DNA from: Candidatus Woesearchaeota archaeon
Lineage (GTDB): Archaea; Nanobdellota; Nanobdellia; Pacearchaeales; GW2011-AR1
DNA length: 64,000 bases
Reading direction: 5' to 3'
Assembly (NCBI GenBank): GCA_964547875.1
Contig: CAZJPE010000001.1
Location: 38,535 to 102,534, forward strand
Below the pieces are notes generated by a model. That model had not been told where the DNA came from and made no database searches. It saw only the letters and a list, made by a program, of their open reading frames with translations. Within the stretch, counting starts at the first letter, position 1. The number at the start of each line of letters is the position of its first letter. Below, piece by piece: positions 4,923 through 64,000 of the stretch. A program made the position numbers and the translations under genes.

Positions 4923-5603
4923 ATGAAAAGAGCAATTGTATTTTTGATTTTATTGTTAAATATAAATTTTTTTATTTCTTCTGTCAGCGCATTCGGAGTT
5001 GCAACTTTATATTCTGACAATTATCCTTTGAAAATGTATCCTGGAGAAACAAAAGAGACATTTTTTTTGTTGAGAAATGTTGTAGAGGGAGACGACGATG
5101 TTGTTATTAAGTCCGAACTTACGAGCGGGGCGGATATTGCCAAATTGATAGATGGGGCGAAGAGTTATGATGCCCCTTTTGGAAGCGAGATTGAAGTGCC
5201 TCTTAGCATAGAGATACCTAAAGAAGCAGTGATAGGGAGCGAGTATAGAATAGGGGCCATTTTCAGGCCAACTCCAACAAAGGTCGCAGGAGGAAATATT
5301 CAATTTATTATAAATATAGGAAAATCTTTTCCAGTTGTTATAATAGAGAAATCTAAACAAGCGAAGAAAGAGATTGAAACATATACAATAACACTTGAAG
5401 ATGATGGCGGAGTTGGAGGGGCATTTGCTCCGTTTATCAAGGGAGCAAAGGGTATTTGGCTCGGATTTATTTTTGGATTAATAGCAGGGATAATTATAGT
5501 GATAATGCTGATAATTTCTTTTACAATAAAAGCTGTAAAAAGAACTAGAGAATTAGCAGAAAACGATTTTATTCAGGCTGAGAATATTAGCAGACCATAT
5601 TAA
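4923..5603 (+). CDS. Surface protein with signal peptide and C-terminal TM anchor
   Basis: Signal peptide MKRAIVFLILLLNINFFISSVSA; C-terminal IWLGFIFGLIAGIIIVIMLIISF plus a basic tail. Confidence 0.5.
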   Translation: MKRAIVFLILLLNINFFISSVSAFGVATLYSDNYPLKMYPGETKETFFLLRNVVEGDDDVVIKSELTSGADIAKLIDGAKSYDAPFGSEIEVPLSIEIPKEAVIGSEYRIGAIFRPTPTKVAGGNIQFIINIGKSFPVVIIEKSKQAKKEIETYTITLEDDGGVGGAFAPFIKGAKGIWLGFIFGLIAGIIIVIMLIISFTIKAVKRTRELAENDFIQAENISRPY

Positions 5604-5868
5604 TGTTTTTTATTCATGTAGACTAGACCATAATTTTGTCTCTATACGAGATTTCGTTATTTTTGAAGATAAAATATCCCATCAAGATAACAATTATTAA
5701 GATTGCAAGCCAGAGAATAGCGGTTATTTTTTGATTCATGGAATGTTAAATCAGAGTTTATCTATAAATTTGCTCGTAAACGAAAGAAAATTACAACAAT
5801 TTAGATGACTTCATATTAACAGCTCACAATTCAGTAAGTCTTAAATAGATGATTTTATTATTTTAAGA

Positions 5869-7599: not shown

Positions 7600-7705
7600 C
7601 GAATATTGCCAGCAATGCGTGAAGATATTTTACTCTACATTTAAAATATCGGGACAATGTTTATAAACTTGTTTTACTCTACATAATTGTTTTTAAAAGA
7701 GGATA

Positions 7706-29956: not shown

Positions 29957-31168
29957 ATGACTCTTGAAGACCAATTAAATGAACTTAGAAGAGGAACAGT
30001 AGACATTCTCACAGAAGAAGAATTAGTCAGAAAACTAAAACAAAATAGACCTCTTAATGTTAAATTTGGAGTTGACCCTACAGCTCCAGATATTCATCTT
30101 GGCCATACTGTACCTTTACAAAAATTGAAACAATTTCAAGACTTGGGGCACAGTATACAACTTATTATTGGGGATTATACGGCAATGATTGGCGACCCTA
30201 GCGGAAGAACTGAGACAAGACCAACGCTAAGTAGAGAAGAAATAGAAAGTAATATGGAAACCTATCAAAGACAAGTCTTTAAGGTTTTAGACCCTGATAA
30301 AACTAATTTGATATATAATAGCCAGTGGTTAGAAAAATTTTCTGGAACTGATGTTATTAAATTAGGTTCAAAATATACTGTTCAGCAACTTTTGCAAAGG
30401 AGAGATTTTGGAGAAAGAATAAAACAAAATAGACCTCTTAATGTTACCGAATTGTTATATCCTCTTCTCGTTGGCTATGATTCTATACACCTTAGAAGCG
30501 ATGTAGAAATTGGAGGAACTGATCAATTATTTAATTTTATGGCAAGCAGAGAAATACAAAAAGCATATGGGCAGGAACCAGAAGTAATTATAACACTTCC
30601 TTTGCTTGAGGGGGTAGATGGCGTAAGGAAGATGAGTAAAAGTCTTGGAAATGCTATAGGTGTAAGTGATGATCCTAATGACATGTATGGAAAAATAATG
30701 TCTATATCTGATGATTTAATGTTAAAATATTATGAGTTATTATCTGAAACTCCTCTAGAAGAATTTCAAGAAATTAGAGCAGCTATTGCTTCTGGAAATG
30801 TAAACCCTATGAAATATAAACAAAGATTAGCAAGGGAAATAGTCTCAAGATATCATGGACAAAATTTTGCAATATCTGCTGAAGAAAGATTTAATGGGGT
30901 GCATAGAAAAAGAGATACGCCAAGCCAATTGGAAGAGGAGATAATAAAGTACTCTGCGCATGAAGAAAAACTTCCAATTGTTACAGTCCTCAGGCAAATT
31001 GGAAGAGCAAAATCTAACAGTGAAGCTAGAAGGCTTATAGAACAAGGAGGAGTAAAGTTGGGTGGAGAGGTTATAAATGACATTAATTACTTTGTTTCTC
31101 CTCAAGATGGTCAAGTTGTTCAAGTTGGAAAAAGGTATTTTAGAAGGTTAAAATATGAAACAGACTAG
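29957..31168 (+). CDS. tyrS: Tyrosyl-tRNA synthetase, bacterial type (with C-terminal S4 domain)
   Basis: GVDPTAPDIHLGHTVPL (HIGH) and VRKMSKSLGN (KMSKS); colinear with bacterial TyrRS; C-terminal S4-like RRLIEQGGVKLGGEVIND. Confidence 0.8.
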   Translation: MTLEDQLNELRRGTVDILTEEELVRKLKQNRPLNVKFGVDPTAPDIHLGHTVPLQKLKQFQDLGHSIQLIIGDYTAMIGDPSGRTETRPTLSREEIESNMETYQRQVFKVLDPDKTNLIYNSQWLEKFSGTDVIKLGSKYTVQQLLQRRDFGERIKQNRPLNVTELLYPLLVGYDSIHLRSDVEIGGTDQLFNFMASREIQKAYGQEPEVIITLPLLEGVDGVRKMSKSLGNAIGVSDDPNDMYGKIMSISDDLMLKYYELLSETPLEEFQEIRAAIASGNVNPMKYKQRLAREIVSRYHGQNFAISAEERFNGVHRKRDTPSQLEEEIIKYSAHEEKLPIVTVLRQIGRAKSNSEARRLIEQGGVKLGGEVINDINYFVSPQDGQVVQVGKRYFRRLKYETD

Positions 31169-31215: not shown

Positions 31216-32349
31216 ATGGATTTCAAAGAAAAATTTGATTTAATAAAAAGGAATACTGAAGAAATTATGACTGAAGAAGATTTGAAAGTTCTTTTAGAGA
31301 GTGGAATTAAAGTTAAACATTATATTGGTTTTGAGATTTCTGGAAAGATTCATCTAGGTACGGGATTAATGTGCATGTCAAAAGTTAAAGACTTTATGGA
31401 TGCAGGAATTGATTGTTCAATTTTTTTAGCTGATTGGCATAGCTGGATAAATGATAAGCTTGGAGGAGATAGAGAAACAATAAAGAGAGTTGCTGGAGGA
31501 TATTTCAAAGAAGGGTTAAAAGCTAGTTTGAAATGTTTTGGAGGAAATCCTAATAAACTAAAATTTGTTCTAGGATCAGATTTATATCATAATAATGATG
31601 ATTATTGGTCCACTATGATAGAAGTTAGTAAAAATACTTCTCTTTCGAGGATGCAGAGAAGCATAACAATTATGGGAAGAAAAGAAGGAGGTTCAGTAGA
31701 TTTTGCAAAGTTGATCTATCCCCCTATGCAAGTTGCAGATATTTTTATCCAAGGAATAAATCTACCTCATGCGGGATTAGATCAAAGAAAAGCACAGGTT
31801 ATTGCAAGAGATGTTGCATTAAAAATAAAAAATAAACCTTTGTTAAATAAACAAAATGAATCAATGAAACCTGTTGCAGTTCATCATCATTTGATATTAG
31901 GGTTAGGGGAGCCACCAGTATGGCCCGTTCCAAAAGATCAACTCCAAGAACTGTGGCCTGCTCTAAAAATGAGTAAATCGAAACCAGATACATGTATATT
32001 TATTCATGATTCACCCGATGAGATTAGAAGAAAAATAAAACAAGCATTTTGTCTGGAGGGTGAAACAAAATTTAACCCCATTCTTGATTGGACAAAATAC
32101 CTTATTTTTAGAGATACGAACCCAAAATTAGAAATTAAAAGACCAGAAAAATTTGGTGGGAATATTACTTATACCTCCTATGAAAAGTTAGAAAGGGATT
32201 TTGCTGAAAAAAATCTTCACCCAATGGATTTGAAAAATGCAGTGGCAGAAAAATTAATCCAAATTCTTGAGCCAGCAAGGAAGCATTTTGAACAACCAAG
32301 GGTTAAAAAAATGCTTGAAGAGTTAGAGCAAATGATAATAATTAGATAA
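31216..32349 (+). CDS. Tyrosyl-tRNA synthetase, archaeal/eukaryotic type (HIGH motif degenerate to HLGT)
   Basis: Near-colinear with archaeal TyrRS: IKRNTEEI...YIGFEISGKIHLGTG, LADWHSWIN, KMSKSKP, IKRPEKFGGNITYTSYEKLERDFAEKNLHPMDLKNAVAEKLIQILEP. Recall-based comparison. Confidence 0.7.
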   Translation: MDFKEKFDLIKRNTEEIMTEEDLKVLLESGIKVKHYIGFEISGKIHLGTGLMCMSKVKDFMDAGIDCSIFLADWHSWINDKLGGDRETIKRVAGGYFKEGLKASLKCFGGNPNKLKFVLGSDLYHNNDDYWSTMIEVSKNTSLSRMQRSITIMGRKEGGSVDFAKLIYPPMQVADIFIQGINLPHAGLDQRKAQVIARDVALKIKNKPLLNKQNESMKPVAVHHHLILGLGEPPVWPVPKDQLQELWPALKMSKSKPDTCIFIHDSPDEIRRKIKQAFCLEGETKFNPILDWTKYLIFRDTNPKLEIKRPEKFGGNITYTSYEKLERDFAEKNLHPMDLKNAVAEKLIQILEPARKHFEQPRVKKMLEELEQMIIIR

Positions 32350-42293: not shown

Positions 42294-44183
42294 ATGACAG
42301 ACAAAAAAGATTATTCTGCAGAGAAGATTCAAGTATTAGAGGGGCTTGAAGCAGTTCGCAAACGTCCTGCTATGTATATAGGCAGCACTGGCAAGAGTGG
42401 ATTGCATCACCTAGTTTACGAAGTTGTTGATAATTCTGTTGACGAGGCAATGGTTGGATATTGTACAGAGATTGAAGTTATCTTGAATAAAGACGGAAGC
42501 GTGACTGTTATTGATAATGGTAGAGGCATTCCAGTTGATGTACATCCCATTTATAAAAGGCCTGCTTTAGAAATTGTCGTGACTAAATTACATGCTGGCG
42601 GGAAGTTTGACAAAGGAGTATATAGTGTATCAGGAGGCTTGCATGGAGTTGGAATAAGCGTAGTTGCTGCTTTATCCAAGCACATGGAAGTTATTGTAAA
42701 AAGAGGGGGCAAGAAATACAAGCAAGAATATAAAATCGGAAAGCCATTATATGACGTAAAAGTTGTTGGAGAGTCTTCAAAAGACGAGAGAGGGACAGAG
42801 GTTAGTTTTCTTCCTGATGATAGCATTTTTTCTGTTAGCAAATTTGATTTTTCTGTCTTAGAGACAAGATTTAGAGAGATTGCCTTTTTGAATAAAGGAT
42901 TGAAAATAATTTTGAAGGATGAAGCAACTGAAAAAAAAGAGGTATTTTGCTATGAAGGAGGCATTGTAGAATTTGTCAAATGGCTTAACAAGTCAAAGGA
43001 GTCTTTGCATAAAGCTATTTATTATTTAAAAGAAGACAGCGGAGTTATAGTTGAGTGCACTGTTCAGTACAATTCTGGCTATCAAGAGAATGTTTTGGGA
43101 TTTGTAAACACAATTAACACAGTAGAGGGGGGAACTCATATTATTGGCTTTAAGACTGCTTTGACAAGAGCGATTAATGATTATGCAAATAAGAATAAAT
43201 TGCTTAAGGATGGAAATTTAACTGGAGATGATGTCCGCGAGGGATTGACTGCTATTATTTCTACTAAAGTTCCAGAGCCGCAATTTGAGGGGCAGACAAA
43301 GACTAAATTAGGGAATAGCGAAATTAAAGGAATTGTTGATAAGATAAGCATGGCGGCTTTATCTGAATTTTTTGAGGAAAATCCTCCTATTGCAAGAAGG
43401 ATTGTTAATAAAGCATTAGAGGCGCAGAAAGCAAGAGATGCTGCGAAAAAAGCTAAAGAGCTAGTTAGGAGAAAGAGCGCATTTGGAGGGGGAGGTTTGC
43501 CTGGCAAATTAGCTGATTGCTCTGATAAAAAAGCTGAGAATACAGAATTATTTATTGTTGAGGGAGATAGCGCAGGAGGTTCGGGGAAACAGGCAAGAAA
43601 TAAAGAAAATCAAGCTATACTGCCTTTGAAAGGAAAGATATTAAATGTGGAGAAAGCAAACGCTGTGAAAGTATTGAGCAATGAAGAAATTTCTTCATTG
43701 ATTACTGCAATCGGGACAAGCATGGGCGAGCAGTTTGACATAACAAAATTAAGATATTCAAAAATAATTATTATGACTGATGCTGATGTTGACGGGGCGC
43801 ATATTAGGACTTTGTTGTTGACTTTTTTCTACAGATTTGTGCCTGACTTGGTTAAGAATGGAAATATCTACATTGCTGTCTCGCCTTTGTATAGAGTGAG
43901 AAAGAGAGGAGACCATTATATTTATTCTGACGAAGAGCTTAAGGAGATTAAGCAGAAGCTAGGGCATAATATTGACGTGCAGAGGTTTAAGGGACTTGGT
44001 GAGATGAATCCCCAGCAATTATGGGAGACAACTATGAATCCCAGAACAAGATTGCTGAAAAAAGTAACTGTTGAAGACGCTGCGCTGGCAGACGAGGTAT
44101 TTTCAAGATTAATGGGCGATGATGTTGAAGCGCGCAGGCAGTTTATTGCTTCTCGCGCGCATGAAGCAGAGGTGGATATTTGA
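42294..44183 (+). CDS. gyrB: DNA gyrase subunit B
   Basis: GLHHLVYEVVDNSVDEA (GHKL ATPase), EGDSAGG, PLKGKILNVEKA, KGLGEM (TOPRIM); 629 aa. Confidence 0.9.
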   Translation: MTDKKDYSAEKIQVLEGLEAVRKRPAMYIGSTGKSGLHHLVYEVVDNSVDEAMVGYCTEIEVILNKDGSVTVIDNGRGIPVDVHPIYKRPALEIVVTKLHAGGKFDKGVYSVSGGLHGVGISVVAALSKHMEVIVKRGGKKYKQEYKIGKPLYDVKVVGESSKDERGTEVSFLPDDSIFSVSKFDFSVLETRFREIAFLNKGLKIILKDEATEKKEVFCYEGGIVEFVKWLNKSKESLHKAIYYLKEDSGVIVECTVQYNSGYQENVLGFVNTINTVEGGTHIIGFKTALTRAINDYANKNKLLKDGNLTGDDVREGLTAIISTKVPEPQFEGQTKTKLGNSEIKGIVDKISMAALSEFFEENPPIARRIVNKALEAQKARDAAKKAKELVRRKSAFGGGGLPGKLADCSDKKAENTELFIVEGDSAGGSGKQARNKENQAILPLKGKILNVEKANAVKVLSNEEISSLITAIGTSMGEQFDITKLRYSKIIIMTDADVDGAHIRTLLLTFFYRFVPDLVKNGNIYIAVSPLYRVRKRGDHYIYSDEELKEIKQKLGHNIDVQRFKGLGEMNPQQLWETTMNPRTRLLKKVTVEDAALADEVFSRLMGDDVEARRQFIASRAHEAEVDI

Positions 44184-44750: not shown

Positions 44751-47700
44751 ATGACAGAAGAAAATAACGAAAAGAAAATTGACGAAGCGATTGAGGAAAA
44801 GGAAAGAGAGAGAAGGAAGAAGGACATGATTGAGAATGGCGTTCAGGGAACTGAAATAGTTGAGGAGATGGAAAAATCTTACATTGATTATGCGATGTCT
44901 GTGATTGTGCAAAGGGCGCTGCCTTCTGTTGAAGATGGCTTGAAACCAGTGCATAGAAGAATTTTGTATTCAATGGAGCAGCTTGGGCTTGATGCTTCAA
45001 AGCCTACAAAAAAATCTGCTACTATTGTAGGAGATGTTATTGGAAAATATCATCCTCATGGAGACATTGCTGTTTATGATGCGCTTGTTAGATTAGCGCA
45101 GGATTTTTCTTTGCGCTATCCTCTTGTGCATGGGCAAGGAAATTTTGGCTGCTTCACAGCAGATACAAAAGTTAAACTTGCTGATGGCAGAGATTTATCT
45201 TTTATTGAGTTGATTGAAGAAAACAATAATGGGAAAAGGAATTTCACATTTACAATAGATAATGGCATTGTTAAAATAGCAGAAGTAAAAAATCCTAGAA
45301 TGACTAAAAAAAATGCAGAGATTATGAAAGTTTTTCTTGATAATGGTCAGGAAATCAAATGTACATTAAATCATTTATTTATGTTAAAGGATGGAAGCTA
45401 TAAAGAAGCAAGAAATCTAAAATCTGGGGACTCGTTGATGCCTCTTTATACGAAACTATCTACTGAAACTGACAGCCTAAAGAATCCAAAAACCATTGGC
45501 TATTCGATGATATTTCAGCCAAAATTAAAATCTTGGAATTTTATTCATATATTGGCTGATGAGTGGAATTTAGATAATAAAATATATGCAGTAAATTCTG
45601 GCAGAATAAGACATCACATTGATTTTAATAAGTTAAATAATAATCCTATAAATATCAAAAGAATGCATTGGAAAGAGCATTGGCAGACACATTACAATTT
45701 AACTTCTTCAAGACATAAAAATGATTTAGATTATAGAAAGAAATTGGAAGAGGGAAGGAGAAGGTTTTGGAGCGACGCTAAAAATCGAGAAGTTTATTCT
45801 CAAAGAATGACTGAAAGAAATTTAGAGAATTGGAAAAAAAGCAGTTATAGAGAAGAAAAACGCATTCAACTTAGTGAAATTAATAAAAAATATTTTAAAG
45901 AGAATCCAGAAGCTATAGAAATAATAAGAAAAAGAGCTTCTATAACTATGAAAAAAATGTGGGAAATTCCAAGATATAAAGAACTTTTTCATGAAAAAAT
46001 TGTCGCTTCTAATAAAAATAGAAAATCAAATCTAACTGGAAAAAAGAAATTTTTAAAGATATGTAATTATTTGCTGACTAAGAATTTACCATTAACAAAA
46101 GAAAATTTTGAAAATATTAGACAAAATATTTTTGGAATAAAAAGCTTTACCAGTTGGAATCATGGAATTAAAAAACATTTTAATGGAGATAAAAATTTAA
46201 TTTTAAATGAATTAAATGGGAATCATAAGGTTGTAGATATAGAATTTATCAATCAACATACTAGCGTTTACGATCTAACAATTGATGATACGCATAATTT
46301 TGCCCTTTCGGCAGGGATTTTTGTGCATAATTCATTAGACGGAGATTCAGCTGCAGCCTATAGATATACAGAAGCACGATTGAGTAAAATCTCTCAAGAG
46401 CTTTTGGCAGACATTGACAAAGAAACTGTCAAGATGAATCCGAATTTTGATAATTCTACAAAAGAACCAGAGACATTGCCTGCTAAACTGCCTAATCTCT
46501 TACTAAATGGGGCGACTGGAATAGCAGTCGGCATGGCTACTAACATACCTCCGCATAATTTGATAGAGTTGTGCGATGCTATTATTGCGTATATTGACAA
46601 TTCAGATGTCAGTATAGATGAACTTTTGCAGATTGTTAGAGGACCTGATTTTCCAACTGGAGGACATGCAATGGGGCCTGGAATTTTAGAGATGTACAAA
46701 ACAGGAAAAGGAAGGATAGTCATGAGAGCTAGAACCTCAATAGAGGAGAAAAAGGGAAGAGAAAACATAATTGTTACAGAGATTCCTTATATGGTTAACA
46801 AGGCAGAGCTGGTTAAGGATATTGCGAGGCTTGCAAGCGAGAAGAGATTGTCTGACATTTCTGACATATGGGATGAATCTGCAAAGGGAAAGATAAGAAT
46901 TGTTATCGAATTGAAGAAAGGCGTTGATTCAAAATATACGATAAACAGATTATACAAATTGACTAATATGCAGACTAATTTTGACGCTAATGTTTTAGCC
47001 TTGGTTGGCAAACAGCCGAGAGTGCTGAATTTGAGGGATGTTATTGTTGAGTATGTTAAATACAGAAGAATGATTGTTACTAATAGAAGTAAGTTTGAAT
47101 TGAAGAAAGCAGAAGATAGATTAGAAATTGTTCTCGGATTATTGATAGCCTTAAAGAATATAGATAGCATTGTTGAGCTTATAAAAAAGAGCAAGACAGT
47201 CAGCGAAGCGCATGAAGGGCTTATGAAGAAATTTGATTTTAGCGACAGACAGGCAAGGGCTGTTTTAGAGACGAAATTGCAGCAGCTTACTTCATTAGAG
47301 CACACAAAATTAAAGGAAGAGGAGCAGAAGCTGAAAGAGACAATAGAATATCTGAAAAATGTTTTGGGCTCTGACAAAGAGATTTTGAAAATTATCAAGA
47401 AAGAGGTTAATGAGCTGAAGAAGGAATATGGAGATGAGAGGAGGACTAAGATCGTGAGAAAGATTGATGAAATTTCTGAAGGCGACTTGATTGAGAAAAA
47501 AGACGTTGTTGTTATGCTGACAAATTCTGGATATATCAAGAGAGTTGATCTTAAGACTTATAAAGAGCAGAAAAGAGGAGGGGCAGGCGTTATGGGTACG
47601 GGATTAAAGGATGATGATTTTGTGAGAAAGATGATTAGCTGTTCAACTCATGATTATTTGCTGTTCTTTACAAAAAGAGGCAGAGTTTACTGGCTTAAGG

Positions 47701-48464
47701 CGCATGACGCTCCTGCTGCAGAAAGACAGGGTAAAGGAAGAAGCATTGCAAACTTACTGAATTTAAGAGAGGAGGCAATTGCCAATGTTATGGCTATTAC
47801 TAACTTTGAATCTGGGTATTTAATGTTTGCTACAAAATTAGGAATTGTGAAGAGGCTGCCTTTAAAGGATGTTTCTAATCCCAGAAGCACGGGAGTTAGA
47901 ATAATGAATCTGCCTGCTGACGGGAGTGACGAGATAATTAATGTCAGCAGAGTAGAGGATGGGCAGGAAGTATTGATTATCACAAAGAAAGGACAGGCTA
48001 TTAGATTTAATTCCAATGATGTTAGGGCTATGGGTAGAGCGAGTTATGGAGTCAAAGGAATTGATTTAGCAAAGAATGATTTAGTTGTTTCTTTAATGGC
48101 TGTTCCTAAAGATGGAAAGACAACTGTTCTAACACTAACGGAAAAGGGATTTGGGAAGAGGTCTGATATTGTGGAATATAGAAAAACTGCGAGAGCTGGA
48201 AAGGGCGTTATTAATTTAAAGACAAATGACAAGACAGGAAGCGTTATTGCATCTGTAGCTGTGAATGACAAAGATTCTGTTATTATTACTACAACAAAAG
48301 GCAATATTATAAGAATTCCAATGAAGGACTTGAGGGTTATGGGGCGAGCAACTCAGGGAGTGAGAGCTGTAAAGCTCAAGGAAGGAGATAAGGTTGCCGA
48401 TGTTGTTCGAGTCCCTGTAATGATTGAAGACTCTCGTTTTGCTGATATGTTTAGTAATCTTTAA
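44751..48464 (+). CDS. gyrA: DNA gyrase subunit A interrupted by an in-frame intein (extein ~843 aa)
   Basis: [23 protein letters not shown], catalytic Tyr in [32 protein letters not shown]-terminal beta-pinwheel repeats. A 394-aa insertion sits between GQGNFG and SLDGDS. Confidence 0.9.
45150..46331 (+). mobile_element. Intein (394 aa) with HNH-type homing endonuclease inside gyrA
   Basis: Starts with Cys ([13 protein letters not shown], block A); block [13 protein letters not shown]-like [24 protein letters not shown]; blocks [24 protein letters not shown] followed by Ser+1. Confidence 0.85.
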
Positions 48465-55368: not shown

Positions 55369-56343
55369 TTATTTCCTACCTTCATAGGCATATATGACTC
55401 CGTCTGGCCCGGGATCTTCAGTTTTACTATAAGGTTTAGAAAACCAAGAACTAATCTGTTCTAAATATGAGTTTTTTGATAAAGAATCTATTGGTTTTGC
55501 TTCGCTATTTTCACTACTGGATTTTTCAAGCTCATCTCCAATATATTCAATTATATTGTTTTTCGTTGTTTTAATATTTTCACGTTTGAAATCAAAAATT
55601 AAATGTTTTATATGCTCCTTCTTTGTTGTTCCCCAATCAGGTCCTCCTTGATGTATTGTATCTCCAAAAACATGCAAATATCTTCCTGCTCCGTTGTCTC
55701 CTCTTCGATATGCTTGAACAAATTTCTGTGCATTTTGCCGGAGTATATTTTCCATATTTTCATTACTAATATCAGAAGCAAGGTGAAAGAATCTATGATT
55801 TTCAGTTTCGGTGTACGAGCGCAAAGGAGGAATGTCTGGTGTAATGGAATCCCATGCTAGTTTAAGCGACTCAATTCTTCCAAATCCCAGTTCTCTACTA
55901 GCGCCATATGTCCCTATAAAATGTATGTCAACTGTTGATTTTCCTGTCGGGTCTGTATATCTATACGGATTATTAAGCACATAAGAATAACAATTCAATG
56001 CCTGAGGATTATAAATATCTGGCTTGATTGTATCACATTGTGTAAACAACTTGATAAATGAACTATAATACCTCGCACCTAAATAATCTAAATCAACTAA
56101 CTTATCTCTCTCCTTGCCAGCAAACAAAAATCTACTTAATTCCAATCCAGAATAAATCTCTCCAAACGGCAAATAAAACTCTTCCTCAACAACATCTCCT
56201 GTCTGATTTGTAACTAATGTTGTGCTGCCTAAATGGTCATCATGATAAAATGTCTTTGCGCCTGAATTGTCTTTCTTCGCAATTAATTTATCATTCGCAT
56301 AATAATATGTTTCATTGAGGATAGTTCCGCTCATTATTTTCAT
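55369..56343 (-). CDS. Orphan RHS-tip toxin module (starts directly at the conserved tip, no N-terminal domain) with a C-terminal toxin domain of unknown activity
   Basis: MKIMS-GTILNETYYYANDKLIAKKDNSGAKTFYHDDHLGSTTLVTNQTGDVVEEEFYLPFGE...DLDYLGARYY...ALNCYSYVLNNPYRYTDPTGK is the RHS repeat-associated core ending; tail KPYSKTEDPGPDGVIYAYEGRK. Confidence 0.7.
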   Translation of the reverse strand: MKIMSGTILNETYYYANDKLIAKKDNSGAKTFYHDDHLGSTTLVTNQTGDVVEEEFYLPFGEIYSGLELSRFLFAGKERDKLVDLDYLGARYYSSFIKLFTQCDTIKPDIYNPQALNCYSYVLNNPYRYTDPTGKSTVDIHFIGTYGASRELGFGRIESLKLAWDSITPDIPPLRSYTETENHRFFHLASDISNENMENILRQNAQKFVQAYRRGDNGAGRYLHVFGDTIHQGGPDWGTTKKEHIKHLIFDFKRENIKTTKNNIIEYIGDELEKSSSENSEAKPIDSLSKNSYLEQISSWFSKPYSKTEDPGPDGVIYAYEGRK

Positions 56344-56352
56344 TTTAGGGTT

Positions 56353-56709
56353 TTATTTTTCATCAACTAATTTTTCTTTCTCTAATATTTCTTTTAATTC
56401 CTTCTTTAATATTGGAATATCTTCATTAATTGTCTTCCAAATTATCCCAATATCAACACCAAAATAATGATGTATCATTTTATCCCTCATCCCTACTATT
56501 TTCTTCCATTCAATATTTTTATATTTATCAATAAATTCCGATGTTAGATTTTTAGCTGCTTCGCCTATTACTTCTATTCTCCTTATAGTAGCGTCCAATA
56601 TATCTCTATTATTCTCAAAATCTCTCTTTGAAAGATTCTTTATAGATTTTTCAATAAGGGTTATATTATCAAGTATATGACTAATAAATACTAAAGGATT
56701 CTTTCTCAT
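56353..56709 (-). CDS. HepT-like (DUF86) toxin of a HepT/MNT module
   Basis: RDKMIHHY gives the Rx4HxY catalytic motif; 118 aa. Confidence 0.8.
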   Translation of the reverse strand: MRKNPLVFISHILDNITLIEKSIKNLSKRDFENNRDILDATIRRIEVIGEAAKNLTSEFIDKYKNIEWKKIVGMRDKMIHHYFGVDIGIIWKTINEDIPILKKELKEILEKEKLVDEK

Positions 56710-56987
56710 ATTATCCTAATTTCCTCTTTAAGTATAGATTTCCTTAATAATGGATTTATTCCTTTATAAGTAAGCAAATCTACTTTTTTCTTTAGTTTTC
56801 TATTTAGTTCCATTTCTAATTCTATCAAACTCAATAAGCCTCCATTGAATTCTATTAAAATATCAATATCGCTATTTTTTTTAGCCTCGCCCCTTGCATA
56901 ACTGCCAAAAATTCCTGCCTTAGGTATATGATATTTTTTTAAGGTGCCTTTAATTTTTGATTTTATCTTGCTTATTTCATTTACCAT
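56706..56987 (-). CDS. MNT minimal nucleotidyltransferase antitoxin
   Basis: GIFGSYARGEAKKNSDIDILIEF = GSxxRG...DxD nucleotidyltransferase motif; 4-nt overlap with HepT. Confidence 0.8.
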   Translation of the reverse strand: MVNEISKIKSKIKGTLKKYHIPKAGIFGSYARGEAKKNSDIDILIEFNGGLLSLIELEMELNRKLKKKVDLLTYKGINPLLRKSILKEEIRII

Positions 56988-57074
56988 ATTATCCTATGAA
57001 ATTGATATTTTTTATATCTTTGGGATTTCCCATCAGGTTGTATAAACCTAAATAAAGTAGAAGGCTCATAATAT

Positions 57075-57554
57075 CTAATTTCCAGAATTATCTTTCTTTG
57101 CAACTAATTTACCATTTGCGTAATAATAAGTTTCATTTAATATTGTTCCATTGCTGTAACGAACTTGAATGAAATTGTCACTTATCTTATTTCTAAAATC
57201 AACAAATTCATCATAGATTATGTTTCTAAATCCAAAATCATAATTTTCATTATGAAATATAAAATGCAAAGAAATTCCTTGATTTAACCAATAGATATTT
57301 TGTTCTTCGTCATAAATGTAACCACTATCAAAATTTTTATCAGAATTATTTAATCCATAAATTGAGAATGTCAAACATTCTCCTAAAATATTATTTGTTA
57401 AATTATTTGAATGACAGATTATAGTGGATTGTGAATAGAAGTCTATTGTGTCGTTCCTTTCAGAGTTCTCTATGTTGTTTTGGGCAAGTGAGAGATTTAA
57501 TAATATGAGAATTAGGAAAATTGCTAAAATTATTTTTGGTAGATTAATATTCAT
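57075..57554 (-). pseudogene. Truncated toxin gene: Sec signal peptide plus N-terminal domain, ending 20 residues into the RHS-tip motif
   Basis: MNINLPKIILAIFLILILLNLSLA signal; ends ISDNFIQVRYSNGTILNETYYYANGKLVAKKDNSGN then stop, i.e. the same tip segment other array members continue through. Confidence 0.55.
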
Positions 57555-57826: not shown

Positions 57827-59182
57827 TTATATACAGGACATTATAACCCCACATCCTCCTCTGTTGTTATTACTTCTTGACTGTTCTTTATTAGATTTTG
57901 AAGATATTGCATTATTTAAATTTCTTCCGCCTCTATTCGATTGTGAGTTAGAGTTTGTTTGTTTATTGGAAGAATCTACCGTTCCTTTAAATATAGATTC
58001 TCCAAATTCAGAATATCCAGATTGTGCTGTTTGAGATATCGCTTCGCTAAATGTAGCTTTTCCTAATTGTGAGGATGGATAAAATTGGCCAGGCGTTCTT
58101 CTTATTATGCCAGGAAGAGAACTTTGCGAGATTCTTGATGAAATTACAGAATTAAAAACGGCGGATGTTAAAATATCTCTGCCTGAAATCTCATTATACC
58201 CTCTTCCTTCCACTAAAGTCTCTTGAGCAAACTCTTGTCCAGCACCAATGCCTGCTAATGCTGTTGTTCTAATAGCAGTGCCAACACCTGCTGTTGCAAT
58301 ACTTCTAAGCCCACCACTAGCTATAGCCGCTACTGTTGTTCCAGGAGAAATTAGTATACTTGCAGCAGTCGCTCCACCAGCAATCGTTCCAGATAACACA
58401 GCTTTGCCTATATCCCCAGTTTGCTGATAAGTAATATAACCTTGGATGCCTCCTATGACTATTGCGGGCACAGCAACAACCAAGACAGGAATGTTTCCTG
58501 TCTCATCCGTATACTTATACGGATTATTCAAAACATAAGAATAACAATTCAATGCCTGTGGATTATAAATATCTGGCTTTATTGTATCACATTGAATAAA
58601 TAGACTAGCAAATGGATTATAATACCTTGCGCCCAAATAATCTAAATCAACTAACTTATCCCTTTCCTTGCCTGCAAACAAGAATCTGTTTAGTCCAAGA
58701 CCTGAAAATATCTTTCCGAACGGCTCATAGAAATTCTCTTCTACAATATTGCCAGATTGATTTGTTACTAATGTAGTGCTACCTAAATGATCTCCATGAT
58801 AATAATTCTTACTTCCAGAATTGTCTTTCTTAGCAACAAGTTTATCATTGGCATAGTAATAAGTTTCATTTAATATAGTTCCATTAGAATATCTAATTTG
58901 AATAAAATTATCAGAGATATAATAAGTAGTTGCGTTAATGCCTGTGCTATAATCATAATCTGCCTTCTTAACCCTATTTCCTTCTGCATCATAAGCATAT
59001 TGCTCTATTAATCTTCCATTTGTTGAGTTAGTTATTTTTGTTAATTGGTTAAATCCATCATAAGTATAGTTTTTATCAAATCCTGAAATGAGATTGCCAT
59101 TTGGGTCATAAGGAAAAGGAGTCCAGATAATTTCTCCTTCCTCAATATAATTATCTTCTTTCTGTATTGTTATGAGTTTCAT
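57827..59182 (-). CDS. YD-repeat/RHS-tip polymorphic toxin with glycine-zipper (membrane-active) C-terminal domain
   Basis: N-terminal MKLITIQKEDNYIEEGEIIWTPFP; YD repeats YTYDGFNQL / YAYDAEGNRV; RHS tip ...YYHGDHLGSTTLVTNQSG...DLDYLGARYY...NNPYKYTDETGN; then IPVLVVAVPAIVIGGIQG...TIAGGATAASILISPGTTVAAIASGG; tail RGGCGVIMSCI. Confidence 0.75.
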   Translation of the reverse strand: MKLITIQKEDNYIEEGEIIWTPFPYDPNGNLISGFDKNYTYDGFNQLTKITNSTNGRLIEQYAYDAEGNRVKKADYDYSTGINATTYYISDNFIQIRYSNGTILNETYYYANDKLVAKKDNSGSKNYYHGDHLGSTTLVTNQSGNIVEENFYEPFGKIFSGLGLNRFLFAGKERDKLVDLDYLGARYYNPFASLFIQCDTIKPDIYNPQALNCYSYVLNNPYKYTDETGNIPVLVVAVPAIVIGGIQGYITYQQTGDIGKAVLSGTIAGGATAASILISPGTTVAAIASGGLRSIATAGVGTAIRTTALAGIGAGQEFAQETLVEGRGYNEISGRDILTSAVFNSVISSRISQSSLPGIIRRTPGQFYPSSQLGKATFSEAISQTAQSGYSEFGESIFKGTVDSSNKQTNSNSQSNRGGRNLNNAISSKSNKEQSRSNNNRGGCGVIMSCI

Positions 59183-59692: not shown

Positions 59693-61051
59693 TTATGCAC
59701 AACTCATGATTTTGCCACATCCTTTATTTCTACTACCTTCAGATTTATCTTTATTATATGGTTTTTCAACTATTCTTTTATCATAGTTATATGTTTTATC
59801 TATTCCTGGAGAAATTGCCCAAGGAGATAGATCTCCCTTAGGAAAACTACTGCCTGCATTTTCTGTAGCAGTTCTTGCGAAAACATTTGAATTAGATCTA
59901 CTGCTACCTACTTTAGGGTTGAGAACATACGGCACCTTCGCTTCATTCAATTTGTTTCCTTCTGCTATAATATCATTAATAAATTCTGTATCTGTCTTTC
60001 CTTCTGGCGTATTCAATAATACATTGCTATATTCTTTAGTTCCTCCTGTTTTCTCCACATTCTTTCCAAATTGCAAAATACTATTAGGATTAAAAATTCC
60101 ATCTGAAGCATATGCCCCTAAATTGAAGTTGGTTTCTCCTCTAAAGTCTTCCGGATTATCAGGTATAACATTAAAGTAAGAATGAGTAGTATGACTTGTA
60201 ACAAAATTAGAGACCACTCTAAGAAAAAGAATATCACTATTTGCATATTGATTATTTATACTTCTTGTAACTAAATAAACCTCCTTGCCATTTGGGTCTA
60301 TGTATTTATAAGGATTGTTAAGCACATAGGCATAATGATTTAGATTTTGTGGGTTGAATATATTAGCTATCATAGAATCAGGAGAAATAAACATCCTCAT
60401 AATTGAAGCCTGATAATACCTTGCTCCATAATAATAAATATCAACTAATTTATCAAACTCTTGAGCCGTGAATAAATATCTTGAACTTTCACTTCCACTA
60501 TACACATCACCAAACGGCAAATAAAACTCTTCTTCTGTAATATTTCCTGTTTGATTAGTTACTAATGTAATAGAACCCAAGTGGTCAGAATGATAATATG
60601 TCTTTGCACCGCTATTATCTTTCTTTACAATTAATTTATCATTTGCATAGTAATATGTTTCATTTAATATTGTTCCGTTTGTATAGCGGATTTGAATGAA
60701 ATTGTCGCTAATGTAATAGGTTGTTTGATTATTTCCTGTTGTGTAATCATATTCTACTTTCTTTATTCTGTTGCCATCAGCATCATACCTATATTCTGCT
60801 ATAACATTTCCTGTGGCATTCTTCTTTCTAACTGAAGATAATTGATTGAATGGATCATACTCGTAATATTTGCCAAGTCCTTTTATTAAATTTCCATTTG
60901 CGTCATAAGTCATATCTGTGTTATAAGTTAAGAGATTTTCGTAATCTAAGGCGTATTCTAGATAGAGTTCTTCTTCGCTATTATATTTATTTTCTGATAA
61001 AAACGGCGTCCAGATTAGTATGTTATTTTTTGGGTTTGTTAGGATTTGCAT
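59693..61051 (-). CDS. YD-repeat/RHS-tip polymorphic toxin, C-terminal toxin domain of unknown activity
   Basis: N-terminal MQILTNPKNNILIWTPFL; YD repeats MTYDANGNL / YEYDPFNQL / YRYDADGNRI; RHS tip to NNPYKYIDPNGK; ~200-aa unique C-terminal domain; tail EKPYNKDKSEGSRNKGCGKIMSCA. Confidence 0.75.
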   Translation of the reverse strand: MQILTNPKNNILIWTPFLSENKYNSEEELYLEYALDYENLLTYNTDMTYDANGNLIKGLGKYYEYDPFNQLSSVRKKNATGNVIAEYRYDADGNRIKKVEYDYTTGNNQTTYYISDNFIQIRYTNGTILNETYYYANDKLIVKKDNSGAKTYYHSDHLGSITLVTNQTGNITEEEFYLPFGDVYSGSESSRYLFTAQEFDKLVDIYYYGARYYQASIMRMFISPDSMIANIFNPQNLNHYAYVLNNPYKYIDPNGKEVYLVTRSINNQYANSDILFLRVVSNFVTSHTTHSYFNVIPDNPEDFRGETNFNLGAYASDGIFNPNSILQFGKNVEKTGGTKEYSNVLLNTPEGKTDTEFINDIIAEGNKLNEAKVPYVLNPKVGSSRSNSNVFARTATENAGSSFPKGDLSPWAISPGIDKTYNYDKRIVEKPYNKDKSEGSRNKGCGKIMSCA

Positions 61052-61052
61052 T

Positions 61053-61304
61053 TTAAATAAAAGTCAGATATATTCCTAAAATGATTAAAATAATACCTAT
61101 ACAAATGCCTAATGGAGCAAAAAACTTTCTTATAATATTTGCCGCTTTATCTTCGCCAAAAATTTTTCTCCAAATAAAAGCTTTTGGGCTTTTCTTGACA
61201 TAATTCTCTAGAAACTTTTTATCTTTAATGGCTTTTGTCGCATAATAAAAGTTTATTACACCAGCTAATAAAATTAATAAAGAATAAGTGTTAAATTTAA
61301 TCAT
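61053..61304 (-). CDS. Small 2-TM membrane protein (extra/orphan immunity-like gene)
   Basis: 83 aa; sits between the barstar-like gene and the next toxin. Confidence 0.4.
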   Translation of the reverse strand: MIKFNTYSLLILLAGVINFYYATKAIKDKKFLENYVKKSPKAFIWRKIFGEDKAANIIRKFFAPLGICIGIILIILGIYLTFI

Positions 61305-61348: not shown

Positions 61349-61642
61349 TTATTTCTCAATCTTAAATTTTACATGATATTTATGATTTCTTATTATTTCA
61401 AGTATATTTTTTAAGAATTCTTCAGGCAATTCTTTTTTTGATTTATCAAAGTTTCTCCAAACTAAAATTATCTTTTCTTTGAACTCAAATTGGTATCCTC
61501 CATATAGGATATCGTCAAAAGCATCATAGTTTCTACCAAAACCTTTAAAATCATTAGTCAGCACACTTACTATCTCGTCATAAAATCCTTTTATATCATG
61601 AAAATTTTCTCCATCTATAATAAAAGTCTTTATTTTCTTCAT
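61349..61642 (-). CDS. Barstar-like RNase inhibitor (immunity protein)
   Basis: IIDGENFHDIKGFYDEIVSVL...FGRNYDAFDDIL...IILVWRNFDKSKKELPEEFLKNILEII is colinear with barstar ([21 protein letters not shown]...YGENLDALWDCL...LVLEWRQFEQSKQ). Confidence 0.8.
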   Translation of the reverse strand: MKKIKTFIIDGENFHDIKGFYDEIVSVLTNDFKGFGRNYDAFDDILYGGYQFEFKEKIILVWRNFDKSKKELPEEFLKNILEIIRNHKYHVKFKIEK

Positions 61643-62688
61643 TTCTTTTTAGAACCTCCAAAAACATTTTTAATCTTATCTACGATTTTAGTAAATGAAC
61701 TCTTTTCGTAATGCTTATCAGTATAATATGTTTCTCCGCCCTTACCAGTTATAACTCTTTCTGGATTTTTTCTACTAGTTACATCATGAGTTGTATAATA
61801 ACCTAGTTCTTGTTTTGGAAGTGCGCCCTCTACATTCTTAAATTCATGGGGTCTTAGCCCATCAGTCTTTCCACTTTGTATTTTATTAATTGTATCTTGG
61901 ACACTTTGAGGCAAATCGGATAACTTGGTTTCCTTTAATTTATCCGCGACATTTTCTGCGCCCTTCAAAGCATCTCCCACCTTCTCCCCGGTCTTAGCCA
62001 AATCAGCCACATCACTAACTCTATCAATTCCTTTAGCAACTCTAAATCCTGCCCCTAATCCAGTTACAAAAGGCAAGGCTGCTCCTGCAACATCTAAACC
62101 AAGAGCAACATAATTGGCAGAATTGTCAGGATCTTGAATAATGCTATAAATATCATATCCGATAAATCCTACATCGGCAACAGTTTCTATATAATGCCCA
62201 GTACCATCTTTGTATTTGTAGGGATTGTTTCTTGCATAATTATAACAGTTTAATTGTTGAGGATCGTAAATATCTGGCTTAATTGTATCACACTGTATAA
62301 ACAACCTCATAATAGAAGCTTGATAATACCTCGCCCCATAATAATACAAGTCAACAAGCTTATCAAACTCTTGAGCTGTGTATAAAAACCTAGATAATCC
62401 AGCTCCAGATAGTATATCGCCAAAAGGACCATAAAAGTTTTCTTCAACAATATGCCCACTCTGATTAGTAACTAAACTCGTACTACCTAAATGGTCTCCA
62501 TGATAAAATGTTTTTGCTCCTGAATTATCCTTTTTAGCAACTAATTTATCATTGGCGTAATAATATGTTTCGTTGAGAATTGTTCCGTTAGTGTTCTCAT
62601 CATTTAAAATATATTCCATATAAAATTCTTCTTGTGGCATTTGTGTCCAGATGAACTCGTTATCTTTTTCTATAATAATAGTTATCAT
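61639..62688 (-). CDS. RHS-tip polymorphic toxin with C-terminal barnase/RNase Sa-T1 family ribonuclease domain
   Basis: N-terminal MITIIIEKDNEFIWTQMP; RHS tip; C-terminal LPQSVQDTINKIQSG...FKNVEGALPKQELGYYTTHDV...ERVITGKGGETYYTDKHYEKSSFTKI aligns with RNase Sa (FQNRESVLPTQSYGYYHEYTV...RRIICGEATQEDYYTGDHYATFSLI). Confidence 0.8.
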   Translation of the reverse strand: MITIIIEKDNEFIWTQMPQEEFYMEYILNDENTNGTILNETYYYANDKLVAKKDNSGAKTFYHGDHLGSTSLVTNQSGHIVEENFYGPFGDILSGAGLSRFLYTAQEFDKLVDLYYYGARYYQASIMRLFIQCDTIKPDIYDPQQLNCYNYARNNPYKYKDGTGHYIETVADVGFIGYDIYSIIQDPDNSANYVALGLDVAGAALPFVTGLGAGFRVAKGIDRVSDVADLAKTGEKVGDALKGAENVADKLKETKLSDLPQSVQDTINKIQSGKTDGLRPHEFKNVEGALPKQELGYYTTHDVTSRKNPERVITGKGGETYYTDKHYEKSSFTKIVDKIKNVFGGSKKK

Positions 62689-63074
62689 TTTTTATCTACA
62701 TTTCTTAATTTTCTCATTAATTTAACAATTCCAAGACCTAAATAAAATCCAATTAATAAACCTGCTATTTTAATAACTAAAAAATCTCCCCAATAATATT
62801 TTAATAATTGCCAAGATATGATGGCTAGTAATATAGAAAATAACAATTCTCTTTCGTTAAGTGAGTTTTTGTTCATTTTAAAAAAGCCCCTTCCTTCTTT
62901 GGAATAGATTATCGATGTTACTAAAAATCCAAAGAATATACCGAGTATCATAATAATTGATCCAAAAATTATAATAAAGACTGGGCTACGCTTGCCTATG
63001 ATAGAGGCACCAATCGCAAGAATCAAAAAAGCAATCCCATACATTATTATTGTAACTATTTTTTCTTTATCCAT
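62685..63074 (-). CDS. 3-4 TM membrane protein, candidate immunity for toxin 63077-64000+
   Basis: The ATG (MDKEKIV...) lies 2 nt after the toxin stop; its end overlaps the next toxin start (ATGA). Confidence 0.5.
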   Translation of the reverse strand: MDKEKIVTIIMYGIAFLILAIGASIIGKRSPVFIIIFGSIIMILGIFFGFLVTSIIYSKEGRGFFKMNKNSLNERELLFSILLAIISWQLLKYYWGDFLVIKIAGLLIGFYLGLGIVKLMRKLRNVDKK

Positions 63075-63076
63075 TT

Positions 63077-64000
63077 TTATGCACAACTCATAACTTTATT
63101 GCAACCTCCATCTTGATTTTTTTCTGCTAAATTACTGCCTTTATTTATAGGTTTACTTCCATATCCATAAATTACACCATCAGGACCAGGATCTTGAGTC
63201 CTACTGAATGGTTTATTGAAGTTATATTCATTATAATAATCTTGTAACGTATTTTCTTTTATAAGTTTTGTGTTATCTAATTTCTCTTTTTCAAAATCTT
63301 CATCAGGTTCTCTATCTAATTCTCCAAAATCAAAAATAGGATATCCTTTACTCCACTGATAAGCTACTCCAACTTTTGCCAATATATTTGGATCATTAAG
63401 TCCCTGTGTAATAGGGTCGCCTTTTATAAAATTAGTAGTTATTTGGGTTGTTACAGTTTCTGTTATGATGGGGGCACCAACAGTTGCTATTGATGAACCT
63501 CCTGAAAGAATACCTGCTACAACAGTAGCTCCTGCAACTCCTCCTCCAGCCAAACCTGCGACAGCGGAATCTGTAATGTCCACCCAAGTAGCTTGCGGAT
63601 TATTTGCTGTATTAATGGCTCCTATAATCGCTCCAATGACAGCTCCCCCAACAACTATACTCGCCACAGTAATTGTTATCGGGTCTATTAAATTTCCACT
63701 CTCATCAGTATATTTGTAGGGATTATTCAAGACATAACTATAACAATTCAATGCCTGAGGATTATAAATATCTGGCTTAATTGTATCGCATTGAGTGAAT
63801 AATCTCATAATTGACGCTTGATAGTAACGAGCGCCATAATAATACAAATCAATAGCCTTGTCCAATTCCTTAGCTGTATAGAGGAATCTGCTTAATTCAG
63901 GCCCTATAAAGATATCTCCGAATGGACCATAGAAATTCTCTTCTGTTATATTCCCTGTCTGATTTGTCACAAGCGTTGTTGAACCAAGATGATCTGGATG
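63077..64000 (-). CDS. RHS-tip polymorphic toxin with glycine-zipper C-terminal domain (5' part outside window)
   Basis: Frame open to the window edge (…HPDHLGSTTLVTNQTGN…); RHS tip to NNPYKYTDESGN; ITITVASIVVGGAVIGAIIGAI...VAGLAGGGVAGATVVAGILSGG; tail KPFSRTQDPGPDGVIYGYGSK...GGCNKVMSCA. Confidence 0.7.
   Translation of the reverse strand, partial: HPDHLGSTTLVTNQTGNITEENFYGPFGDIFIGPELSRFLYTAKELDKAIDLYYYGARYYQASIMRLFTQCDTIKPDIYNPQALNCYSYVLNNPYKYTDESGNLIDPITITVASIVVGGAVIGAIIGAINTANNPQATWVDITDSAVAGLAGGGVAGATVVAGILSGGSSIATVGAPIITETVTTQITTNFIKGDPITQGLNDPNILAKVGVAYQWSKGYPIFDFGELDREPDEDFEKEKLDNTKLIKENTLQDYYNEYNFNKPFSRTQDPGPDGVIYGYGSKPINKGSNLAEKNQDGGCNKVMSCA

Follow-up and report, generated by a model that had tools for sequence, protein, structure and literature searches.

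Two overlapping genes on the minus strand of a 64,000-nucleotide (nt) stretch of contig CAZJPE010000001.1 (assembly GCA_964547875.1, Candidatus Woesearchaeota archaeon; the whole stretch is called the window below) encode a protein that joins the end of an RHS core to a ribonuclease (RNase) domain, and a protein of the barstar family. These two genes probably make up an orphan cassette within the polymorphic RHS toxin locus of a DPANN archaeon, a reading to which we give a probability of about 0.72. The RNase-bearing open reading frame (ORF) is 349 amino acids (aa) long (61639..62688, taken from the ORF list), and the barstar-family immunity gene encodes 97 aa (61349..61642, assigned from PF01337 and from barstar chains in the PDB). 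Both are present where an earlier reading of the letters (the sequence-only reading) had put them, and they overlap by the 4 nt ATGA. A GGAGG sequence lies 13 nt 5' of the barstar ATG, and both ORFs are intact, with zero frameshifts and zero internal stops.

The RNase and barstar genes as a probable RHS cassette

The family assignments proposed from the sequence were borne out by the Pfam searches that had been named as a check, both families being matched above the cut-off. Residues 252-329 of the 349-aa protein match PF00545 (Ribonuclease; E 5.4e-11, 43.3 bits against a cut-off of 24) and residues 5-87 of the 97-aa protein match PF01337 (Barstar; E 7.7e-14, 51.9 bits against a cut-off of 23.4), the cut-offs being the curated gathering scores. 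When the PDB is searched by sequence with phmmer, RNase Sa, Sa2 and Sa3 match the RNase part at 4e-6 to 9e-5, and barstar chains match the 97-aa protein at 1.5e-4. The motifs that had been quoted also align: FKNVEGALP corresponds to FQNRESVLP of RNase Sa, RVITG to RIICG, and YYTDKHY, including the catalytic His, to YYTGDHY; on the barstar side, IDGE, FGRNYDAFDDIL and LVWRNFDKSK are aligned as expected. Both proteins are singletons in a collection of 15 billion proteins.

The fold of the RNase domain was predicted with AlphaFold2 for residues 247-349 (predicted local distance difference test, pLDDT, 83.8; predicted template modelling score, pTM, 0.74) and compared with known structures by Foldseek. 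As the sequence-only reading required, the model is similar to known structures of the family: it superposes on RNase Sa2 (1py3_B) with template modelling (TM) scores of 0.77/0.85 and a root-mean-square deviation of 1.9 Å over 91 columns. Twenty-nine Sa-type chains are found at E of about 1e-3 or better, with Sa and Sa3 following Sa2, and barnase gives a TM score of about 0.45. Barnase and binase are more distant relatives of this domain than the RNase Sa group.

The homologue search for the 97-aa protein yielded only 4 sequences, and the structural model built from them is of low confidence (pLDDT 55.5). This model shows the beta-alpha-alpha-beta-alpha-alpha-beta order, as in barstar, and barstar chains fill the first 19 places among its Foldseek matches (TM scores of 0.54-0.64 over the length of the query and 0.59-0.69 over that of the target). 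Asp40 (61523..61525) and Asp44 (61511..61513), located in FGRNYDAFDD, correspond to Asp35 and Asp39 of Bacillus barstar, which lie on the helix that binds the RNase. They form the DxxxD that is the signature of the barstar family (PMC3482391) and that is kept in 7/7 barstar partners of the RNase subgroup described in the next section. A Barstar-family gene lies directly next to the RNase gene, mostly with a 4-nt overlap, at all six related loci (P0008, P0009, P0015, P0016, P0018 and P0024). Immunity proteins diverge together with the toxins. The '...[YH]-D' RNases have FGRNxDAFDD barstars as partners, 54-73% identical to the 97-aa protein; the partners of the '...H-Y' RNases are longer CGxSxDSVHD barstars with 23-26% identity to it. 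From these sequence relationships we infer that the 97-aa gene encodes the cognate barstar-type inhibitor of the RNase tip.

The 349-aa protein is made up of three modules. Residues 1-165 (62194..62688, minus strand) are a 5'-truncated, C-terminal fragment of an RHS/YD-shell core, identified by BLASTP, by a DNA repeat and by weak matches to PF03527 and PF25023. This fragment is a constant handle common to the main RHS gene of the locus and to the other orphans, and it ends with NNPYKYKDGTGH165. The motif at this point, NNPYKY(K/T/I)D(G/E/P)(T/S/N)G(H/N/K), is found in the main gene and in the orphans, with total divergence after it; bacterial Rhs cores end in PxxxxDPxGL, and the variant here is NNPYKYxDxxG[HNK]. 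Residues 19-201 align with residues 772-958 of the 1122-aa RHS protein encoded nearby (58.5% identity, BLASTP). Inspection of the sequence revealed neither a signal peptide nor a hydrophobic N-terminus in the 349-aa protein. It also has no complete YD shell with an N-terminal export region, only about 165 aa of the shell end being present.

Residues 166-250 (61939..62193, minus strand, 85 aa) form a pre-toxin linker, recognized from relatives that share only this part and carry other toxin tips. Its sequence, YIETVADVGFIGYDIYS...ALGLDVAGAALPFVTGLGAG..., has a Gly/Ala-rich, moderately hydrophobic core, with a Kyte-Doolittle maximum of 1.6 at residues 194-212 (19-residue window). A homologue search with residues 166-349 gave six proteins (P0001-P0006) that share the linker only and end in other domains, and the C-terminal domain of one of them resembles GIY-YIG weakly, below the threshold; RNase relatives were absent from the matches of this search. 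Because this search returned linker-only proteins with unrelated tips, the linker is a separate module. In the relatives, either a signal peptide or the end of an RHS core precedes it, and unrelated C-terminal domains come after it. No meaningful Pfam family was found for it even at E<=10, the single match being far under its cut-off, and the possibility of a known pre-toxin domain was rejected on this basis. By analogy with bacterial pre-toxin/entry domains, it may have a role in release or membrane translocation. The linker also shows the pattern D-x-[GA]-F-I-x-Y-D-x-Y-S ... ALGLDV-x-GA-x-x-PFVTG-x-G directly after the RHS core end, and P0001-P0006 are metagenomic proteins, some of them from high-GC, probably bacterial sources. 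The third module, residues 251-349 with the stop codon (61639..61938, minus strand, 99 aa), is the RNase Sa-type domain, delimited by PF00545, the RNase Sa match and the AlphaFold2 model.

The source is a 290-kb metagenomic contig (ENA ERZ27284378), of which about 21 kb around the locus were examined. The array reads, in order: a 1520-aa gene; a 1122-aa gene; a 129-aa membrane protein; the 349-aa RNase protein and barstar; an 83-aa membrane protein; a 452-aa RHS protein and a 170-aa membrane protein; a 451-aa RHS protein; and fragments. Downstream of the 1520-aa and 1122-aa genes there are four truncated RHS ORFs, each with a small gene 3' of it, and the RNase cassette is the first of them. 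The DNA of the core end is repeated: about 400 nt are present in 5 copies with 63-80% identity. The truncated core followed by an immunity gene that defines an orphan cassette is accordingly seen here in the gene order, in the five repeats and in the 58.5% identity to the main protein. At a related locus (L057), whose contig is archaeal by its RecJ, S15 and S3ae genes, an RHS protein of at least 712 aa ends in this linker and RNase, with a barstar gene and further orphans after it. This arrangement matches the prediction of cassette exchange.

The two large genes have the makings of a carrier. The 1520-aa protein, encoded 5' of the 1122-aa gene, is TcB-like, with a signal peptide, FG-GAP repeats, TcdB_toxin_midN (81 bits), DUF6443 and RHS repeats, and its last third matches solved Rhs shells. 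The 1122-aa protein, which has zero matches among PDB sequences, contains a signal or transmembrane segment, Laminin_G_3, the remaining YD shell and a different tip ending in GGCNKVMSCA. The N-terminal part of the shell seems to be carried by the first protein and the C-terminal part, with the tip, by the second; the two probably build an encapsulating cocoon. The two genes overlap (L001 1685..9612, array strand), and the shell seems divided in a TcB/TcC-like manner. No TcA-like gene is found within the 21 kb examined. The sequence-only reading had described a secreted RNase delivered by an RHS carrier. The fusion of an RHS core end to the RNase stands, but the protein, which has no signal peptide and no shell, is not deliverable alone. 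As the 349-aa ORF matches only residues 772-958 of the main protein and lacks a signal, delivery would need recombination onto a carrier or some partner.

Active site and relatives of the RNase domain

By sequence and fold the domain is a homologue of the RNase Sa/barnase family, but its catalytic residues are not the canonical Glu and His. Five residues of the active site are conserved and shared with RNase Sa, Sa2 and Sa3: His326 (61711..61713, minus strand, as are all codons given here), equivalent to the general acid His85 of Sa and His102 of barnase; Arg311 (61756..61758), equivalent to the phosphate-binding Arg69 of Sa and Arg87 of barnase; Lys307, equivalent to Sa Arg65 and barnase Arg83; the loop residue Asn285, equivalent to Sa Asn39; and Tyr327, equivalent to Sa Tyr86. 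In a family alignment of 181 domains, taken from the 150 best library matches, the general-acid column is His in 155/181 and the Arg column is Arg in 164/181; both residues expected of a family enzyme at these places are present here as His326 and Arg311.

The general-base Glu (Sa Glu54, barnase Glu73), in contrast, is absent, its place being taken by Thr300 (61789..61791). This column is Glu in 128/181 aligned domains and Thr, Ala or Ser in the nearest subgroup. The sequence-only reading had put an Asp at this position, matching HDV to HEY, which does not hold: that residue, Asp302 (61783..61785), lies two positions further, opposite Sa Thr56 and barnase Asp75, with His301 opposite Sa Tyr55. 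GYYTTHDV pairs gap-free with GYYHEYTV in the phmmer alignment to Sa, in the 181-domain alignment, and when a subgroup profile is compared with Sa and with barnase. The register of HDV on HEY was rejected, as it needs a 2-residue insertion that none of these four alignments supports. Asp302 is likely to play a structural or orienting part. Compared with RNase Sa, 4 residues are missing from the loop that follows the Glu strand, and what precedes the domain is an RHS core end and linker, not a signal peptide as in Sa. Guanyl specificity, which had also been claimed, is not to be assumed. Asn285 and Glu287, the latter equivalent to the guanine-recognition Glu41 of Sa, are both present, but the Glu is not conserved in the subgroup, where the column varies among E/Y/A/K/G/D/R, and specificity is not inferable for this reason.

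An exhaustive phmmer search of 1.84 billion cluster representatives gave 270 matches at E<=1e-3 and 14 at E<=1e-10. The nearest relatives are P0008 (67% identity) and then P0009, P0015, P0016, P0018, P0021 and P0024; a profile search of a word-indexed database missed them, its matches being for the most part bacterial RNases of the classical kind. In the Glu column these nearest relatives all carry Ala, Ser or Thr, and most have Asp two residues later. They share a His, here His281 (61846..61848), within the motif (R/E/N)-P-H-x-[FY]-x-N. A scripted count finds this His in 12/24 Glu-less domains and in 3/128 Glu-containing ones, numbers drawn from related sequences and not from independent events; inspection of the rows suggests that P0080 and P0111 keep a Glu in an inserted segment, giving about 11/22 for the Glu-less domains. 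The remaining Glu-less domains are mostly internal copies in tandem-repeat proteins. His281, Asn285, Arg311 and His326 are invariant or nearly so in the subgroup. Since the pairing with barstar is conserved, these Glu-less RNases would still be dangerous to their producers. One relative, the 63-aa RNase fragment P0021 (YYTAYS...YYTKDHY; L056 10061..10252), lies just 3' of another RHS-RNase/barstar pair, which indicates tandem or decayed RNase cassettes at that related locus.

The subgroup profile places the shared His opposite Val35 of Sa and Asp54 of barnase, the position occupied by His281 here. The guanine loops of T1 (42-46), Sa (37-41) and barnase (56-60) are equivalent. The profile's only local match to RNase T1 sets rPHefkN on Y38-P39-H40-K-Y42-N-N44, that is, on T1 His40, in an alignment of 2 bits that is not significant alone and whose register agrees with the equivalence of the guanine loops. 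The two stretches, P39-H40-K-Y42-N-N44-Y-E46 in T1 and P280-H281-E-F283-K-N285-V-E287 here, both read P-H-x-[YF]-x-N-x-E. His40 of T1 reportedly acts as the base once Glu58 is changed to Ala, a result said to come from Steyaert in 1990, a paper among the references of PMC11487538. The active site of T1 consists of His40, Glu58, Arg77 and His92, in which His40 on beta3 adjoins Glu58 on beta4 and is a member of the catalytic set (PMC11487538). T1 keeps its Glu58, whereas the RNase here is without Glu; by sequence and fold the latter is nearer to the bacterial Sa branch than to T1, the equivalence of the two His residues being one of sequence register only. His281 is the best candidate for a replacement general base.

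Proposed mechanism and alternative explanations

As an orphan cassette, the RNase copy would most likely be a stored or displaced tip, becoming a weapon only once joined to a full-length carrier, and the core end of residues 1-165 would serve as the constant recombination handle. In the cytoplasm of a target cell the RNase domain would cleave RNA, with His326 as the acid, Arg311 and Lys307 binding the phosphate and His281 as the candidate base in place of Glu. Asp40 and Asp44 of the barstar would most likely plug the active site of the RNase, shielding the producer and its kin. This plugging model is taken from the precedents of barnase-barstar and RNase Sa-barstar, Sa too being inhibited by barstar (PDB 1ay7).

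Several findings weigh against this proposal. At the DNA level the RNase handle is only 63-66% identical to the main gene, and no exact match between them is longer than 23 nt, which makes frequent homologous swapping doubtful. The intact RNase ORF has ATGA overlaps on both sides, and its translation in the present form is possible. Elsewhere, RHS-RNase proteins of just 408-469 aa that have signal peptides of their own (P0008, P0015, P0018) show that short RHS forms are able to stand alone. These three observations speak against simple silent storage. Loss of the Glu could moreover leave the domain with low or zero RNase activity, and the case for His281 draws on a register, with the qualifications given above for the T1 alignment and for the His counts; on the immunity side, the low-confidence barstar model counts on the same side of the balance.

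The main competing explanation, which we consider unlikely, is that the 349-aa protein is used as it is, as a short cap made from a polycistronic array and docking on the large secreted TcB-like/RHS protein in the way that TcC docks on TcB; the RNase would thereby enter a cocoon of two parts, and no rearrangement would be needed. The overlaps with both neighbours and the intactness of the ORF are in keeping with it, as are the stand-alone RHS-RNases with signal peptides, one of which is encoded three small genes (the barstar homologue and two others) upstream of a 1596-aa TcdB_midN/RHS gene, and the RHS shell at this locus already appears split between the 1520-aa and 1122-aa genes. On the other hand, the RNase copy here lacks the signal peptide or hydrophobic N-terminus of P0008, P0015 and P0018, and a shell of about 165 aa is far below any characterised TcC or Rhs core; bacterial orphan arrays of exactly this form are moreover explained by tip displacement and recombination (PMC3482391). 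A decaying relic, in which a displaced former tip has a catalytically dead RNase and the barstar is kept against RNase toxins of neighbours, appears still less probable. It would account for the absence of the Glu (Glu54/Glu73), for the low DNA identity to the main gene and for the singleton status of both proteins among 15 billion, and decay does occur in this array, where another short RHS gene is apparently split by MNT/HepT. However, the Glu is absent from the whole subgroup on different carriers and is not a private lesion; the subgroup retains the active-site His, Arg and Asn together with its own specific His; a DxxxD barstar is adjacent in 6/6 relatives; and neither gene here is interrupted. 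The Glu-less state is thus conserved across the subgroup together with immunity, and this makes a dead relic unlikely.

The least probable of the alternatives, to which we give very little credence, is that the protein is no weapon between cells but an RNase against which the producer is protected, secreted as barnase and RNase Sa are, for acquiring nucleotides from a host cell or from environmental RNA, the RHS part serving only as a surface or delivery scaffold. DPANN archaea commonly lack nucleotide synthesis. They are host-dependent (PMC6642349), simple, non-polymorphic barnase-barstar pairs are widespread and occur also in methanogenic archaea (PMC3482391), and P0009 consists of just a signal peptide, the linker and the RNase, followed by a barstar. 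The RNase copy described here, though, sits among alternative tips and immunity genes in a polymorphic array of the classical type, and it has no export signal; nutrient and weapon purposes can also coexist. The orphan cassette itself may be set in a wider and more tentative proposal, which we regard as possible but doubtful: a natural Glu-less branch of the Sa/barnase family, mostly associated with DPANN archaea, would use as its base a His on the neighbouring strand, in the register of T1 His40, and would be loaded into a two-gene, TcB/TcC-like RHS cocoon and injected into hosts or competitors. If true, this would be the natural counterpart of a solution known only artificially, from the T1 E58A mutant.

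Neighbouring genes, host and relation to known systems

The RNase ORF begins where an ORF of 133 aa ends (62685..63086, minus strand, counted from the first TTG; the 129-aa gene of the source contig), their start and stop overlapping in ATGA. This ORF encodes a multi-pass membrane protein that presumably confers immunity to the main RHS tip. Positions 63077..64000 (minus strand) hold the 3' end of the 1122-aa RHS gene, which continues beyond the window. In the interval between the barstar gene and the next orphan, an 83-aa protein with two transmembrane segments is encoded (61053..61304, minus strand). It was rejected as a second immunity component, no homologue being found beside the barstar genes of the six related loci; it probably lies outside the RNase cassette and could be the immunity gene of another cassette that has been lost, left stranded here.

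Three RHS tips of the array (minus strand; 63077..63103, 59693..59719 and 57827..57853) share a C-terminal tail of the form G-C-x-x-[VIM]-M-S-C-[AI]-stop, namely GGCNKVMSCA, GCGKIMSCA and GGCGVIMSCI, each placed after an N/S/K-rich spacer; the RNase tip is without this tail. The tail could form a Cys-x6-Cys loop or be a sorting or processing signal. Further along, at 55369..57554 (minus strand, in the pieces 57075..57554, 56353..56987 and 55369..56343), a 159-aa ORF with a signal peptide, a Cys-rich N-terminal domain and an RHS core start and a 324-aa RHS orphan resemble one short secreted RHS gene. This gene appears to have been split by insertion of an MNT (NTP_transf_2)/HepT toxin-antitoxin pair, and about 100 nt of RHS core (GTILNETYYYAN...) are duplicated on the two sides of the pair. 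A subtilisin-like serine protease of 581 aa is encoded at 19598..21343 (minus strand), and at the related locus L058, on a contig that leans archaeal (archaeal Mre11 models best; 32% GC), a 929-aa Peptidase_S8 gene (5215..8004) overlaps the start of a short RHS-RNase gene. Subtilisin-like proteases near RHS loci recall the mixture of protease, LamG and BC-toxin domains in the SPEARE proteins of DPANN archaea.

The host is an archaeon, as had been proposed. Kae1 encoded in the window scores 423 bits with the archaeal equivalog model, above the cut-off of 375, and 212 bits with the bacterial TsaD model, below the cut-off of 296; its nearest genomic relatives, with up to 81% identity, are metagenome-assembled genomes of Nanoarchaeota, Woesearchaeota and Pacearchaeota. 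Two adjacent tyrosyl-tRNA synthetase genes are found on the plus strand, a bacterial-type one at 29957..31168 (TIGR00234, 368 bits) and an archaeal-type one at 31216..32349 (PRK08560, 433 bits). The window also carries a bacterial-type gyrase, with GyrB at 42294..44183 just 5' of GyrA (44751..48464, plus strand, 1237 aa), which contains an intein (PF14890) at residues 143-527. An origin from bacteria or the candidate phyla radiation, suggested by the bacterial-type synthetase and the gyrase, was ruled out by Kae1, by the archaeal-type synthetase and by the 50/51 Kae1 loci that are labelled archaeal. The exception among the 51 is in one metagenome-assembled genome labelled Patescibacteria.

Enterobacterial rhs loci reportedly contain orphan rhs-CT/rhsI modules, as Jackson in 2009 and Koskiniemi in 2014 are said to have described. 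The cassette resembles these modules in its 5'-truncated core, variable tip, cognate immunity gene and tandem arrangement 3' of the main gene on the same strand, and differs in that the cores have only 63-80% DNA identity and that short relatives bear signal peptides. The design of the cassette, an RHS carrier with a barnase-family tip, a barstar and orphan arrays, is itself already known. Tox-Barnase with RHS repeats, Imm-Barstar and the logic of cassette recombination have been catalogued by Zhang, de Souza, Anantharaman, Iyer and Aravind (2012, PMC3482391), who also note that Methanosarcina has RHS toxins accompanied by cassettes and that simple pairs of barnase and barstar occur in methanoarchaea. 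In common with the cassettes of that catalogue are the barnase-like RHS C-terminus, the order of toxin before immunity gene, the array 3' of a full-length gene and the DxxxD. The host here is, however, a DPANN archaeon of the Nanoarchaeota/Woesearchaeota type and not a bacterium or methanogen, the RNase belongs to a Glu-less, His-bearing branch, and the linker is not in Pfam. Like the TcB-TcC (BC) cocoon of ABC toxins (Busby 2013, cited in PMC6642349), the putative cocoon of this locus is split over two genes, a TcdB_toxin_midN/FG-GAP/RHS protein being followed by a second RHS protein with a tip; a TcA-like injector, by contrast, is not seen in the 21 kb examined. A DPANN SPEARE protein has a BC-toxin-like domain (Hamm 2019, PMC6642349), and a Laminin-G domain is common to the SPEARE proteins and this locus. 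A full-text literature search for DPANN, RHS and toxin returned no title or abstract on RHS toxin cassettes.

What is new is the DPANN example without close relatives, the small RNase branch with an altered catalytic set and the unannotated pre-toxin linker. The locus offers a toxin/immunity pair that is concrete and can be cloned, from a group, the DPANN archaea, in which weapons and the machinery for interaction with hosts have barely been studied by experiment, and it has the bacterial RHS logic of main gene, array of orphan tips and cognate immunity genes at work in very small archaeal genomes. The pair also anchors the interpretation of the array: the variable tips past NNPYKYxDxxG would be toxins, and the small genes after the tips would be immunity genes. 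Finally, the Glu-less, His-bearing active site offers a well-defined test of catalytic plasticity in a much-studied enzyme family, and the use of His as the base, if true, would raise the importance of this RNase branch.

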